Positions 330-6,147 of a stretch of 6,147 bases of DNA are shown in pieces. Below the pieces are notes generated by a model. That model had not been told where the DNA came from. It saw only the letters and a list, made by a program, of their open reading frames with translations, and ran no database searches. The stretch lies in the IMG/VR virus record IMGVR_UViG_2671180637_000023. One strand, given 5' to 3'. Position numbers and translations under genes: made by a program. Position 1 is the stretch's first letter; each line of letters begins with the position of its first letter. The stretch is from a virus. Its lineage: Duplodnaviria; Heunggongvirae; Uroviricota; Caudoviricetes.

Positions 330-1283
330 ATGCGGGCGAAACTTCTGGGAATATTCCTGACAACCCCTATTGCGATCAGCTCTTTTGCTTCTACCGAGAC
401 TTTATCGTTTACTCCTGACAACATAAATGCGGACATTAGTCTTGGAACTCTGAGCGGAAAAACAAAAGAGCGTGTTTATCTAGCCGAAGAAGGAGGCCGA
501 AAAGTCAGTCAACTCGACTGGAAATTCAATAACGCTGCAATTATTAAAGGTGCAATTAATTGGGATTTGATGCCCCAGATATCTATCGGGGCTGCTGGCT
601 GGACAACTCTCGGCAGCCGAGGTGGCAATATGGTCGATCAGGACTGGATGGATTCCAGTAACCCCGGAACCTGGACGGATGAAAGTAGACACCCTGATAC
701 ACAACTCAATTATGCCAACGAATTTGATCTGAATATCAAAGGCTGGCTCCTCAACGAACCCAATTACCGCCTGGGACTCATGGCCGGATATCAGGAAAGC
801 CGTTATAGCTTTACAGCCAGAGGTGGTTCCTATATCTACAGTTCTGAGGAGGGATTCAGAGATGATATCGGCTCCTTCCCGAATGGAGAAAGGGCAATCG
901 GCTACAAACAACGTTTTAAAATGCCCTACATTGGCTTGACTGGAAGTTATCGTTATGAAGATTTTGAACTCGGTGGCACATTTAAATACAGCGGCTGGGT
1001 GGAATCATCTGATAACGATGAACACTATGACCCGGGAAAAAGAATCACTTATCGCAGTAAGGTCAAAGACCAAAATTACTATTCTGTTGCAGTCAATGCA
1101 GGTTATTACGTCACACCTAACGCAAAAGTTTATGTTGAAGGCGCATGGAATCGGGTTACGAATAAAAAAGGTAATACTTCACTTTATGATCACAATAATA
1201 ACACTTCAGACTACAGCAAAAATGGAGCAGGTATAGAAAACTATAACTTCATCACTACTGCTGGTCTTAAGTACACATTTTAA
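330..1283 (+). CDS. ompT: Outer membrane protease OmpT (omptin family, protease VII)
   Basis: 317-aa ORF whose translation I recognise as E. coli OmpT over its whole length. 20-aa signal peptide MRAKLLGIFLTTPIAISSFA, then mature STETLSF. Catalytic residues present at precursor positions D103/D105 (MVDQD) and D230/H232 (NDEH), which are mature D83/D85/D210/H212. Ends in the C-terminal aromatic residue typical of beta-barrel OMPs (...LKYTF). SD GGAG upstream. Confidence 0.97.
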   Translation: MRAKLLGIFLTTPIAISSFASTETLSFTPDNINADISLGTLSGKTKERVYLAEEGGRKVSQLDWKFNNAAIIKGAINWDLMPQISIGAAGWTTLGSRGGNMVDQDWMDSSNPGTWTDESRHPDTQLNYANEFDLNIKGWLLNEPNYRLGLMAGYQESRYSFTARGGSYIYSSEEGFRDDIGSFPNGERAIGYKQRFKMPYIGLTGSYRYEDFELGGTFKYSGWVESSDNDEHYDPGKRITYRSKVKDQNYYSVAVNAGYYVTPNAKVYVEGAWNRVTNKKGNTSLYDHNNNTSDYSKNGAGIENYNFITTAGLKYTF

Positions 1284-1532: not shown

Positions 1533-2282
1533 TCAGTCAATTGTTTTGTTTATTCCATCTGTGACGCCGATTATTTTCTCAAAATAATGAGATGGCGTGA
1601 CACCATAATAATCTTTAAATGCACATATGAAATATGAAGTACTGTTATAGCCACATTTCTGGGCTACGACATTGATAGAATAAGAGTTTGAAGTTATGAG
1701 TTTTTTTGCATACCTCATCCTAGTATCTCTCAATATTTCAGTAAATGACGTTCCTTCATCCCTTAATCTTTTTTTCATTAAACTTTCACTCGTATAAATC
1801 AATTCCGCAATATCTTTTAAATGCCATTGTCGCTCAATATTAAAACTGATTATTCCAGTAATTTTACAGGTGAATGTATTTATATTTGTTAGTATAAAAG
1901 AATTTACACTTTCGCGTTTTTTGAACATGGCAAGTAAGGATATACATAGTCTTTCTTTTAACCAAAGGGAGTATGAGTCTGCTATTTTAATCCCTTCAAA
2001 CAGAGAAAAAACAAGCGATAATGGAGGTTCCTCTTCAGCAATATAGCCATTCTTATCAAGAGTAAATTTGCCAGGCAGCTCATTATTCACGTCGATAAAA
2101 AAGGATAAACATGTTTTCTTATCTATATCAACAATTCTTAGTTTAGAGGGGCATACTGGTAACTCCCTTCTAATTTTGTCGCTTACAATAAACAATGAAT
2201 TTTTTTTGAACGAGATAACTCTCCTGTTTATAATTAAATCAAATGATTGACAGATGAAAACTACGGAGCAAACATAATCCAT
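1533..2282 (-). CDS. appY: AraC/XylS-family transcriptional activator AppY
   Basis: 249-aa ORF. N-terminus [21 protein letters not shown] and overall sequence recognised as E. coli AppY. C-terminal dual helix-turn-helix of the AraC family (...[46 protein letters not shown]). SD AGGTG 4 nt before the ATG. Coding sequence conspicuously AT-rich (by eye roughly 30% GC), consistent with horizontal origin. Confidence 0.95.
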
Positions 2283-2828
2283 CTTGCACCTATCATAAAA
2301 TTAAAACAAGTTGATAGCAGTCAAATAACAACCAATTAAATACACAATCATAATCAGGATGATGTGCATTTATATTTTTATACACAAAATTATAGTTTGC
2401 AAATTTTAATAAATTTCATTTAAGATTAAATTATTATATGTATATTGTTTTTTATTCTAACGTATTTCAAAGTTACATTTTTCAACGCTTACTATACTTT
2501 TTATTAACATAAACTCACTACAACGCACCTGAAACCTCTTGCTATATATATGTCAACCGTTTGAATTTAAAATAAAAAGAGTATCATTTTTACTTGCATT
2601 TCTTATCAAGTCACATTCAACAACAGTAAAAAAAACATTATTAGAACCATTCAATTAACAAAAAACCAACATCCAGCTTGCTTAATTTTTCTTTATTAAA
2701 CGATATTGAAAATCAATTGATAAAATACATCTAAACAACCTTTTGGGGCGCAAAAGCATAACATCAAACAAACAAATAACACACCGAAAAAACTCACAAT
2801 TAATAACCTATGATATACATACTGTTTA
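2283..2828 (-). promoter_or_regulatory. Long, extremely AT-rich appY upstream/leader region (promoter(s) and probable nucleoid-protein silencing target)
   Basis: ~550 bp with no ORF of 60 aa or more on any frame, very low GC, many A- and T-tracts. It sits directly upstream of appY on its coding strand. Individual -10/-35 elements cannot be assigned confidently because the whole region resembles promoter sequence. Confidence 0.45.
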
Positions 2829-3089
2829 TTATGGTTGAATAAGCCACTCGATATCTGGTGCTACGGAAGTGTCCACACGGTTTAGCAGCACCCGATACTT
2901 TTTTCAGGCTTCCAGCAACGATCTTTCTTCCTCCGTTGCGATTTCCAGATCTACAGCATCCTGCAGTGGCGCAATATACTCACTGAATTCCTGGATGTAG
3001 AACTGTGTGGTGACGGTCTTCCAGCTATTCGGCTCCTGCTGTATTGAAGCATACCAGGCTATTTCAATATCGCTATGCTGCGGCAGCAT
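2829..3089 (-). pseudogene. tfaX: Tail fibre assembly protein remnant (tfaX-like), interrupted by an in-frame TGA
   Basis: ORF 3089..2904 (61 aa) ends ...[23 protein letters not shown] then TGA. The same frame continues [24 protein letters not shown] to a TAA at 2829-2831. The intact tfa in this window reads ...[44 protein letters not shown] at the homologous position, so the TGA replaces a Trp codon (TGG to TGA). The N-terminal 38 aa do not match lambda-type Tfa, so the fragment is chimeric or truncated. Confidence 0.8.
2843..2983. repeat. Direct repeat copy A (tfa 3'-end homology, within tfaX remnant)
   Basis: By-eye alignment with 3892-4032 gives roughly 85% identity over ~140 bp, including a 40-bp identical core (2924-2963: TTTCTTCCTCCGTTGCGATTTCCAGATCTACAGCATCCTG). 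Confidence 0.85.
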
Positions 3090-3145
3090 TTAACCCCTTG
3101 TAATTCATTGCCATAATTGATTTAATTCACAAATAAAACTATAAC

Positions 3146-3814
3146 ATGGTGAAATTAATGAAAAAAAACACAGATGATGGGGCTAAAATTTACACACCAC
3201 TTACCCTAAAGCTTTATGACTGGTGGGTTTTGGGAGTATCAAATCGGCTTGCATGGGGATGTCCTACAAAGGAACACCTTCTTCCACACTTTCTGGAACA
3301 TTTAGGTAACAACCATCTGGATATTGGTGTTGGAACTGGGTTTTACCTTACTCACGTACCTGAGAGTAGTCTGATATCTTTAATGGATTTGAACGAAGCT
3401 AGCCTGAACGCGGCATCTACAAGGGCTGGGGAATCAAAAATTAAACATAAAATTAGCCATGATGTTTTTGAACCTTATCCCGCGGCGTTACATGGTCAAT
3501 TTGATTCCATTTCCATGTTTTACCTTCTTCACTGCCTGCCTGGAAATATATCTACAAAAAGCTGTGTAATACGCAATGCGGCGCAGGCCTTAACTGACGA
3601 TGGAACTCTATACGGAGCCACAATTCTTGGCGATGGAGTTGTGCACAATAGCTTCGGTCAAAAACTGATGCGCATTTACAATCAGAAAGGCATCTTTTCA
3701 AACACAAAAGATTCCGAAGAAGGCTTAACACATATACTCTCAGAGCATTTCGAGAATGTTAAAACCAAGGTTCAAGGTACTGTAGTAATGTTTTCCGCTT
3801 CAGGGAAAAAATAG
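3146..3814 (+). CDS. ybcY: Class I SAM-dependent methyltransferase, substrate unknown (ybcY-like prophage cargo gene)
   Basis: 222-aa ORF. Glycine-rich SAM-binding motif I LDIGVGTGF, an acidic residue at the end of the next strand (ISLMDLNE), and a downstream hydrophobic motif (DSISMFYLLHCLP), typical of the Rossmann-fold small-molecule/RNA/protein methyltransferase class. No DNA-methyltransferase target-recognition or DPPY/NPPY-type motif seen. No SD before the ATG at 3146; the ATG at 3158 is preceded by GGTGA, so the true start may be 3158. Gene symbol inferred from position between tfa and tfaX next to appY, as in K-12 DLP12 from memory. Confidence 0.75.
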   Translation: MVKLMKKNTDDGAKIYTPLTLKLYDWWVLGVSNRLAWGCPTKEHLLPHFLEHLGNNHLDIGVGTGFYLTHVPESSLISLMDLNEASLNAASTRAGESKIKHKISHDVFEPYPAALHGQFDSISMFYLLHCLPGNISTKSCVIRNAAQALTDDGTLYGATILGDGVVHNSFGQKLMRIYNQKGIFSNTKDSEEGLTHILSEHFENVKTKVQGTVVMFSASGKK

Positions 3815-3821
3815 CATCCAA

Positions 3822-3854
3822 CCGCAGCACGTTCTTGCTTAAGACGTGCTGCGG
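3822..3854. terminator. Perfect 11-bp inverted repeat between convergent methyltransferase and tfa (candidate bidirectional terminator or protein-binding palindrome)
   Basis: CCGCAGCACGT (3822-3832), 11-nt loop, ACGTGCTGCGG (3844-3854). It lies in the 54-bp gap between the methyltransferase stop (3814) and the tfa stop (3869). No U-tract directly adjacent on either strand. Confidence 0.35.
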
Positions 3855-3868
3855 CATAATCCCAATGA

Positions 3869-4453
3869 TTACTCCCTGACAGGGTTCGTAGGCCACTCAA
3901 TATCAGGTGCAGTTGATGTATCAACACGGTTCAGCAACACCCGATATTTTTTCCAGGCTTCCAGCAATGAGGTTTCTTCCTCCGTTGCGATTTCCAGATC
4001 TACAGCATCCTGAAGCGGCGCTATATGCTCACTGGCTACCTGCATCAGGCTGTTTTTTGTTTCTTCCGCCTCCCGGATCCGGAACAGTTTTTCTGCTTCC
4101 GTATCCTTCACCCAGTCTGTGCCGTTCCACTTCTGAAACTCCCCTTCCGGGGATAACCAGGTAACATTTTCCGGTAATGAGCCGAGTTCAGAAATAAATA
4201 ACGCGTCCCCTGATGCCACGTCATAAACTGTTTTACCCCGATGGTCTTCAACAAGATGCCACGATGCCTCATCACTGTTGAAAACAGCCACGAAGCCTGC
4301 CGGAATATCTGGCGGTGCAATATCGGTACTGTTTGCTGGCAGACCTGTATGAGGCGGAATATATGCGTCACCTTCACCAATAAATTCATTAGTTCCGGCC
4401 AACAGATTATAAATTTTTATGGTCTGTGGTTGTTCACTCATTCTGAATGCCAT
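3869..4453 (-). CDS. tfa: Phage tail fibre assembly protein (lambda Tfa family chaperone)
   Basis: 194-aa [77 protein letters not shown]..., recognised as the lambda/Rac/e14 Tfa family. SD GAGG 8 nt upstream. Its start codon overlaps the stf stop (TAATG at 4451-4455). Confidence 0.93.
3892..4032. repeat. Direct repeat copy B (3' end of intact tfa)
   Basis: Partner of 2843-2983; 40-bp identical core at 3973-4012. Confidence 0.85.
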
Positions 4454-5688
4454 TATGCAAGCCTCACAATATAGTTAAATGCGATGTTTTTGACGGTGTT
4501 TTCCGCGTTACCAGCAGCGTTAACGGTGATGGTGTGTCCATGTGAACCAATCGCAACGGAGTGCGTATGAGCACCAATACCGACAGTATGTGCATGTGCG
4601 CCTGCGCTTGCAGCAGTGCCGGACAGCGAGTGGGTATGAGCACCATCTGATGATGTCTTCCCTGCATTACGAGTCTGGCCACTACCGCTTGTTGTGCTCA
4701 TAATCCCCGCGCTTAGATTTGAAATCGCGGTATAACCATTAGGGAAAATGCTCGTGTTCGTGCCACCAAATGCACCGGAACTCTTGTGTTGGTGCGCACC
4801 GGCACTATTTGCAGTCCCGCTAATACTATGGGTATGCGCCCCGGTGTTATTCGTGGATTTGGTTCCGTAATCAAACGACGATGTGTTTTTCGTCCCCAAA
4901 TCCGTACTGGATGCGCTGGCGCTGTGGGTGTGCGATTTAATGCCGTCCTGTTCCTGAGACAATACGGCACGACCACTGGCGGGTTTGCCCTTAATCGTCC
5001 AGCCACGCATATCAGGGATCACGCCTGACGGATAAGCGACTGCAAGTTTCGGGTATGCAGATTTGTCAAAAGTCTGCCCCTGCATCAGGGCATAGCCAGA
5101 CGGAACGGTATCTGATGGCCACGGGATTGGTGCGCCAGGCGGATAAAACTGCTCTGATGGCGTATAGAGTGAATAAACTGTACCGTCCGTTAACCCTTCC
5201 GGCTTATTAGCTGAATATGCTGGTGACGTATGAATCGTCACGCTGGCATTACTGGTATAATCCCATTGAATATTTACACCAGTCGCATAATTTCCGATTG
5301 CAACGTAAATATCGTAAGTATCACCAGATGTATTGACCCAGGCAAAATTTGTAAACCCTGTCGATGTGCGCTGCCATAAAGCACCAGTAATCCCCTTCGG
5401 ATTACCATTACCTGCACGCAAAACAAGTTCAGATATACCTGCCTGTTGAGGTGACCCCACGTTAAATCCCGCGCCACCAATCAACGTAATTGAAACAACA
5501 GAACTCGCCTGTGGCATGGTTACCGTTGCTAATTTGAACCAACCAGCACCACCGCTGAATAACATTGTTGTTGAGTTAAGCGTACCAATATCTTTCGGCG
5601 TCAGTGTTATATCCGCTGAAAGCGCCTTACCATTCACCTTACGGGCAGAAGGTACCCGACCATTCGCATTATCATTAGCTGCTTTCAC
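4453..5688 (-). CDS. stf: Side tail fibre protein Stf, C-terminal portion only (5'-truncated gene; receptor-binding distal region with HxH repeats)
   Basis: 411-aa ORF from a GTG at 5686-5688; the frame stays open upstream to 5760, immediately after the lom remnant stop, with no convincing SD, so this is an N-terminally deleted fragment of a ~1000-aa class gene. The C-terminus ...[40 protein letters not shown] and the collar-like motif [20 protein letters not shown] are characteristic of lambda/Rac Stf-type fibres. Six HxH motifs lie between residues 252 and 385. Stop overlaps the tfa start. Confidence 0.88.
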
Positions 5689-5756
5689 TGCTTTCGGTGT
5701 CGCGGCAAGCGTTTCAGATGCGCTGTTGGTTGCACTACTGAGCTGGACAATTCCTT

Positions 5757-6086
5757 TTATTCATTCACGCGCACAGACGGCCCCGCCATCACGCTGAACC
5801 AGCGGTTACGCACGGAATCTTCATGCCAGCGGGTATCGCTGTAACGGGTAAGCTGGCGATTCTTGTCTCCTGCATAGCTGAATGACGTCACCAGCCCCAG
5901 TGTGTCCGTAAACTCATAACGGTATTTCACGTTAATCCCGTTCAGATCATCACTGCCGGGAACGTTCGTCCGGGCATGAAGATACCCCGCGCTCAGCGTG
6001 GACTGATGTTCAGACGCCCATGCAGGCGCACCGGATACGGCCAGACAAATGGCTGCGGACAAAATGGCGGCACAAACTTTACGCAT
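5757..6086 (-). pseudogene. lom: lom remnant: N-terminal 109 codons of an Ail/Lom-family outer membrane protein, truncated
   Basis: MRKVCAAILSAAICLAVSGAPAWA signal peptide, then [85 protein letters not shown], recognised as the lambda Lom N-terminus (full length about 200 aa). The frame ends at TAA 5757-5759 where full-length Lom continues, so an intact 8-stranded barrel cannot form. SD GAGAGG 6092-6097. Confidence 0.88.
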
Positions 6087-6108
6087 AATTACCTCTCGCT
6101 TTTCTGCA

Positions 6109-6134
6109 ATAAAAAAGGCGCCATTTCTGGCGCC
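6109..6134 (-). terminator. Rho-independent terminator upstream of lom (on - strand), terminating transcription coming from the tail gene side
   Basis: On the - strand: GGCGCC-AGAAAT-GGCGCC hairpin (6134..6117) immediately followed by TTTTTTATT (6116..6108). The lom SD and ATG follow about 20 nt later. Confidence 0.6.
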
Positions 6135-6147
6135 CGTATATGGGTTA

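Follow-up and report, generated by a model that had tools for sequence, protein, structure and literature searches.

The window, meaning the whole stretch of 6,147 nucleotides that was analysed, carries a methyltransferase gene between two pieces of tail-fibre-assembly (tfa) sequence, within the following set of features:

330-1283, plus strand: ompT (Omptin by Pfam)
1533-2282, minus strand: appY (AraC-type by Pfam)
2829-3089, minus strand: truncated tfa remnant of 87 codons with a TGA inside at 2904-2906; its N-terminus is absent according to RefSeq
3090-3145, no strand: spacer of 56 bp between the tfa remnant and the methyltransferase gene, with a predicted divergent promoter (SELEX hexamers found in the window)
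3146-3814, plus strand: intact ybcY allele, class I SAM-dependent methyltransferase by profile, motif and predicted fold, 222 aa as annotated
3822-3854, no strand: hairpin where the methyltransferase and tfa genes converge (MFE -23.9 kcal/mol)
3869-4453, minus strand: full-length tail-fibre-assembly gene, equivalent to tfaD, 194 aa (Caudo_TAP, 3.7e-45; phrog_105, 9e-101; RefSeq)
4453-5688, minus strand: C-terminal part of stf with tail collar and fibre repeats (Pfam Collar and Phage_fiber; comparison with locus L001)
5757-6086, minus strand: first 109 codons of lom (ORF list and Pfam scan)

The resulting gene order at the right prophage end is lom'-stf-tfa-MTase-tfa'-appY-ompT. The closest chromosomal match to the window, with 99.2% identity, has the same order and adjoins envY-ybcH-nfrA, and the RefSeq comparison finds this same order and neighbourhood in K-12. 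As both the order and envY-ybcH-nfrA are shared, the window represents the right end of a DLP12-type lambdoid E. coli prophage, a placement already proposed in an earlier note made from the sequence alone. It resembles the K-12 DLP12 ybcY/tfaD'/tfaX' region in its locus and in the succession of ompT, appY, tfa remnant, methyltransferase and tfa, its DNA being 98.4% identical over positions 2601-4307. The two tfa pieces correspond to tfaD' and tfaX' of K-12, the remnant being the K-12 tfaX pseudogene. Unlike the K-12 copy, which is frameshifted according to RefSeq annotation, ybcY is intact in the window; moreover, the window tfa is full length and is followed by stf and lom remnants, whereas that of K-12 is truncated and joined to a terminase fragment.

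The lom gene ends after codon 109, where it is fused to the C-terminal part of stf (window 5666-5759). The missing DNA, about 1.7 kb by comparison with the closest relative (L001), consists of lom's 3' half plus some 1.4 kb from the 5' part of stf, and therefore this prophage is left without an intact side tail fibre gene. Just upstream of lom, the minus strand holds a GC-rich hairpin followed by a T-run at 6107-6140 (GGGCGCCAGAAATGGCGCC TTTTTT), which looks like an intrinsic terminator ending gene J, as would be expected if lom were a moron of its own. A 30-nt inverted repeat (1401-1430 and 2807-2836, 77% complementary) flanks appY and its AT-rich upstream region (23-30% GC), and may be a sign that appY was inserted separately or a chance product of AT-rich DNA. 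A 45-codon ORF on the minus strand (3759-3896), annotated as hypothetical by RefSeq and as a nucleocapsid protein in K-12, overlaps the 3' end of the methyltransferase gene and the hairpin that follows it, and is probably a spurious call.

The methyltransferase gene of the window is the intact allele of ybcY, a gene that is already named and annotated. The methyltransferase of a near-identical locus is RefSeq WP_000239881.1, the annotation of PhiR26_1 uses the name ybcY as well, and this name is in use in the literature (PMC6854850). The earlier note had described an ORF of 222 aa at 3146-3814; the gene is real, but its true start is probably the ATG at 3158, which would give a protein of 218 aa. 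Met5 is where each of the 43 aligned homologues starts, the functionally unannotated PHROGs family phrog_2132 aligns with residues 5-222, and a candidate ribosome-binding site, GGTGA (3148-3152), lies 5 nt upstream of ATG 3158. A genomic SELEX study of K-12 with the RpoD holoenzyme lists two signals for the ybcY/tfaX spacer, a constitutive ybcY promoter (TTGATT-17-TATAAC) and a binding site for H-NS (PMC3946193), the latter suggesting silencing. The promoter evidence is thus in vitro and refers to the K-12 allele, while the window contains the predicted hexamers, TTGATT at 3117-3122 and TATAAC at 3140-3145, separated by 17 nt. As this -10 box directly abuts the annotated ATG at 3146, the promoter also makes a 218-aa product starting at 3158 the probable one. 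A consensus scan gives TTAACC-16-CATAAT (3090-3117) as an alternative promoter candidate. At the other end of the gene, the hairpin at 3822-3854 has a z score of -5.67, and 0/200 shuffled sequences fold equally well. It has no adjacent T-run on the plus strand and was not called by the terminator scan; it is a possible bidirectional terminator.

Profile, motif and fold all assign the ybcY product to the class I SAM-dependent methyltransferases. It passes four Pfam gathering cut-offs (Methyltransf_12, 37.6 for a cut-off of 30; Methyltransf_23, 28.8 for 27; Methyltransf_25, 27.7 for 27; Methyltransf_11, 24.6 for 21.2), and the motif I residues D59-x-G61-x-G63-x-G65, together with D81 at the acidic end of strand 2, are invariant in 44/44 sequences. 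The AF2 model (pLDDT 90.3) predicts a single 218-aa domain whose seven strands form the seven-stranded Rossmann-like sheet of class I methyltransferases. The profile searches that the earlier note had called for confirm this class, but no NCBIfam subfamily lies above its cut-off, CpaM and RquA reaching about 17 bits for cut-offs of 175-180. The family is widespread in Enterobacterales at identities of 56-90%, with 2,296 matches in all, and its conserved motifs are YDWWV, HLDIGVGTG, DLN, HD, YLLHCLPG, GAT and YNxKGIFSN. The invariant YDWWV, HCLPG and YNxKGIFSN were not seen in an above-cut-off NCBIfam family or in a close PDB relative. The best structure matches in the PDB are a bacterial phosphatidylethanolamine (PE) N-methyltransferase, JHAMT, phosphoethanolamine methyltransferases and natural-product methyltransferases, and the PDB sequence-profile matches are JHAMT and UbiG. 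Compared with PE N-methyltransferase 8ys9, JHAMT 7ec0, UbiG 4kdr and MM_2633 3dtn, the protein shows 12-21% identity and a TM score of about 0.6, and no single family stands out.

The gene is enclosed by the only strong direct-repeat family found by the repeat search of the window, 2840-2996 and 3889-4045. The two copies are 157 nt long, 84% identical and spaced by 1049 nt, and they share an identical core of 40 nt (2924-2963 = 3973-4012), for which the chance expectation in 6.1 kb is about 1e-17 by our own arithmetic. In the MAFFT pairwise alignment their similarity breaks off sharply at about 2997/4046. Two direct repeats with a 40-bp identical core had been noticed by eye at 2843-2983 and 3892-4032; the core and the position agree with the repeat search and MAFFT, while these limits were slightly short. 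As had also been seen, both repeats derive from tfa 3' ends, since Caudo_TAP matches both ORFs (3.7e-45 and 7e-7), and between these ends, which lie on the minus strand, there is one methyltransferase gene of opposite orientation. In the remnant ORF (2904-3089, minus strand), the Caudo_TAP match of 7e-7 covers profile positions 74-105 and residues 30-61; phrog_2341 matches with 1.4e-41, and phrog_105 aligns to residues 28-61. Only the last 58 or so codons of the remnant (2829 to about 3002) are tfa-derived, residues 1-27 being not tfa-like. The TGA of the left copy at 2904-2906 stands where the right copy reads TGG, and RefSeq describes the remnant as a tail fiber assembly protein that lacks its N-terminus and contains an internal stop.

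Of 5,426 complete E. coli genomes, 3,846 (about 71%) contain the unique core of the cassette (2997-3868), in up to 4 copies each, and in 2,839 records its identity reaches at least 99%. The unique core is also found in 15 phage records, including ev243 and PhiR26_1. The latter is a viable phage with E. coli MG1655 as recorded host and the order J-lom-stf-tfa-ybcY-tfa'-hydrolase-ompT, in which tfa-ybcY-tfa' is arranged as in the window. The slot is occupied in 1,488 genomes that have the flanks of the window. Many genomes match positions 2843-4034 alone, that is, from repeat to repeat; in a prophage adjoining potB the match covers 2843-4014, and in an O157 prophage 2860-3860. Most genomes contain several tfa copies, at a median of 3 places, which makes tfa 3' ends mosaic in any case. 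Between the window and phage ev243, the potB-locus prophage or the O157 prophage, the ybcY ORF differs at 1-2 of 669 positions (0.1-0.3%), and the flanking repeats differ by 10-18%.

This divergence is not evenly distributed within the repeats, which were split at the 40-bp core and compared half by half. In the left repeat (2840-2996), every context compared has the same sequence in the cargo-side half (register 2940-3002; 100% identity), whereas the outer half (2843-2923) is 70-83% identical and varies with the resident prophage. In the right repeat (3889-4045), identity between contexts is 84-96% in the cargo-side half (the register of 2843-2923) and 16-43% in the outer half, which varies with the fibre module. 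One half of each repeat is therefore linked to the cargo and the other to the resident sequence. Such a pattern would arise from repeated crossovers in tfa homology and not from the simple descent of one ancient insertion, the 40-bp core (2924-2963) being the probable preferred zone of crossover.

The earlier note had suggested that the gene be looked for as present or absent exactly at the repeat boundaries, and had predicted that recombination across the repeats would delete it. A synthetic sequence with the precise deletion expected from a crossover in the 40-bp core was built and searched in the 5,426 complete genomes, and several of them match its junction in one piece at 100% coverage. 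With a 452-nt junction query and a coverage of at least 80%, which is out of reach for occupied sites (a 905-nt query mixed occupied and empty ones), a precise single-copy empty site was found in 10/5,426 genomes, at the same chromosomal locus, although these 10 could include never-occupied alleles, as the direction of the event, gain or loss, is not readable from the sequences. The five empty-site genomes that were inspected have appY, a single tfa of 576 bp, stf and lom at the DLP12 locus, and the methyltransferase gene is absent. According to the informative sites, their single tfa is a chimera, of left type distally and of right type proximally. The switch from left to right type occurs after about 2923 in two genomes, about 2890 in one and about 2870 in two, which amounts to at least three switch points. 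The test of presence or absence at the repeat boundaries is thus positive. In L017 and L018 (locus 4329-4904), the left-type TGA lies in the sole tfa copy, where RefSeq flags an internal stop; as the crossover brought this codon into the only copy left, loss of the cargo can also inactivate tfa.

Junctions to other fibre modules also fall within the repeats. ATCC 8739, which lacks the cargo, and ev243, which carries it, have a common junction to another fibre module, at the same register (2939 = 3988 - 1049) and inside the 40-bp core. At 3988 in ev243 and at 4014 in B18271, illegitimate joins connect the repeats to unrelated fibre modules, and therefore non-homologous module replacement also shapes this locus.

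The model proposed here is that ybcY belongs to a moron cassette downstream of the stf operon, whose tfa ends act as portable homology arms for exchange and loss; we give it a probability of about 0.72. In this model ybcY would be transcribed alone, on the opposite strand, from a sigma-70 promoter in the 56-bp spacer, with a strong hairpin after the gene. At either end of the cassette lies a direct copy of roughly the last 150 bp of tfa, the right one being the end of a working gene and the left one a truncated remnant. A RecA- or Red-type crossover inside these ends would delete the cargo and leave one chimeric tfa, while other crossovers would reassort the near-invariant cargo with upstream fibre modules and downstream b-region DNA, which would account for the spread of the cassette to about 71% of E. 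coli genomes. The empty sites, the switch points, the junction shared by ev243 and ATCC 8739 and the contrast between cargo-linked and resident-linked halves argue for homologous exchange within the tfa ends as the process behind gain, loss and reassortment of the cassette. Homologous recombination as the maker of these junctions, the original capture and the expression of the intact allele are what we infer from these patterns. The earlier idea of capture by homologous recombination in a moron hotspot consequently holds for later exchange and loss through the repeats, which is as far back as the sequences allow the history to be traced.

It could be argued instead that the repeats are passive scars, an stf-tfa-ybcY block having replaced most of an older tail-fibre module illegitimately and left the old tfa 3' end behind, so that homologous recombination had no part in acquiring the gene. 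The illegitimate joins to unrelated fibre modules inside the repeats of ev243, ATCC 8739 and B18271 are in line with such an origin, and so are the first 27 residues of the remnant, which are not tfa-like. As a general explanation it is unlikely, as it leaves unexplained the constant cargo-side and variable outer repeat halves, the near-identical cassette core between flanks that diverge by 10-18%, and the chimeric single-copy sites with several switch points. It may well fit the first event, though not the later spread; given the joins within the repeats, the first capture may have been a module replacement that left an old tfa end.

The exchangeable cassette has the features of a moron, a concept due to Juhala and Hendrix and exemplified in lambda by lom and bor. 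Like lambdoid morons, it is an extra gene, set between conserved late genes with an orientation and a predicted promoter of its own; some collinear relatives have it and others lack it, its composition differs from that of its neighbours, and its slot also swaps fibre modules. The GC content is about 41% across the methyltransferase gene, 47-53% across tfa/stf and 23-33% on the appY side, so that the gene is less GC-rich than the tail-fibre DNA, as had been noted before. Cargo hotspots adjoining tail fibre or tfa genes have been described in other phages (10.1101/2024.10.15.618418). The slot in the window differs from lambdoid morons and these hotspots in being bounded by a duplicated tfa 3' end as homology arm, and no explicit description of such a slot for ybcY was found in the literature.

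Related loci carry further cargo. In O157:H7 (L007 6003-8803), an extra 2.8 kb between window positions 3860 and 3890 separates ybcY from the full tfa and encodes a general stress protein, two ferritin-like proteins and a manganese catalase, from which it follows that the ybcY slot accumulates several morons. The viable phages ev243 (L002 2831-5455) and PhiR26_1 (L029 474-3098) have ompT and a 494-aa ORF between the tfa remnant and the integrase end; this ORF is an alpha/beta hydrolase by ev243 annotation, and appY takes its place in the window. As these viable phages carry ompT, ompT itself is phage cargo. In L006 (AVS0947; 4856-5088), appY and the tfa remnant are deleted, which brings ompT to within about 230-270 bp of ybcY. 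A deletion of appY and the tfa remnant has been reported in strains including UPEC CFT073, UTI89 and 536, in a context linked to low omptin activity (PMC6854850).

A further alternative concerns the gene rather than its mobility, namely that ybcY is a decaying pseudogene or functionless passenger, kept because it sits at a rarely deleted spot in defective prophages. The frameshift of the K-12 copy would agree with this, as would the H-NS site at its promoter (PMC3946193) and the lack of a phenotype of the K-12 ybcY mutant in a Hha toxicity assay (PMC2408971). Nevertheless, intact ybcY forms a 99%-identity cluster of 6,589 members, its motifs are invariant across Enterobacterales, viable phages carry it, and dN/dS values with respect to the Citrobacter, Salmonella and Enterobacter homologues are 0.10-0.20. 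The sequence comparison thus indicates that the protein is under purifying selection, and these dN/dS values mean that the ORF is not a decaying fragment, which makes the passenger explanation improbable. The outcome that the earlier note would have taken as fatal, a degraded fragment of a larger known gene, is likewise contradicted by dN/dS.

A DNA methyltransferase that shields phage DNA from restriction, or acts epigenetically, could also be considered, given that phages often encode orphan DNA methyltransferases. However, neither the (D/N/S)PP(Y/F/W) and PCQ motifs of DNA methyltransferases nor a target-recognition domain is present in the 222-aa sequence, and the predicted fold is of the small-molecule type, in agreement with the initial impression that the motifs are unlike those of DNA methyltransferases; such a role is very improbable. 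PADLOC gave no defence assignment for ybcY. Most likely the enzyme methylates a small molecule, a lipid or a protein in the lysogen. Finally, although Gin/Cin/Pin-type switches typically show duplicated tfa and fibre ends, the tfa ends are hardly conceivable as the relic of such an invertible tail-fibre switch, as the copies are direct rather than inverted and a recombinase is absent from the window and the neighbouring loci examined.

The genomic neighbourhood does not point to a reaction. No conserved operon was found around the more distant, stand-alone homologues of Salmonella, Enterobacter, Yersinia and Erwinia, and the closer relatives of ybcY lie in or near prophage or island cargo (DinI, PerC, Mig-14 with tfa, Cdt/OspG). 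A BioC/BioH-like pairing of methyltransferase and esterase was considered and rejected, the phage alpha/beta hydrolase and the Erwinia carboxylesterase being unrelated (E = 0.87). The mentions of ybcY found in the literature are confined to its use as a locus marker, an entry in the SELEX promoter list and a mutant lacking a phenotype, and no substrate or function was found there. A possible reaction is phosphatidylethanolamine N-methylation, hinted at by the resemblance in fold to PmtA and by an aromatic helix at the N-terminus, and by analogy with JHAMT the product might conceivably be a carboxyl methyl ester. That YbcY-family enzymes are lysogenic-conversion methyltransferases modifying a host envelope lipid or a small metabolite is a speculative idea with low odds. 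If it were true, a widespread prophage-encoded host modification would have been overlooked in model strains, ybcY being present in about 71% of E. coli and broken in K-12.

Earlier work already covers ybcY, the tfa pseudogenes beside it and morons as a concept, and in this respect the cassette is an ordinary moron. The present analysis adds its prevalence, the cargo-linked and resident-linked repeat halves and the chimeric empty sites, which will not surprise a phage genomicist. The locus provides a clean and quantifiable case of prophage cargo being moved, reassorted and deleted by way of a conserved gene end, the tfa 3' end, that works as a homology arm. The cargo itself is a conserved methyltransferase, found in most E. 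coli strains and under purifying selection, which probably owes its neglect to the frameshift in the K-12 copy; for the same reason, K-12 is a natural null for complementation.
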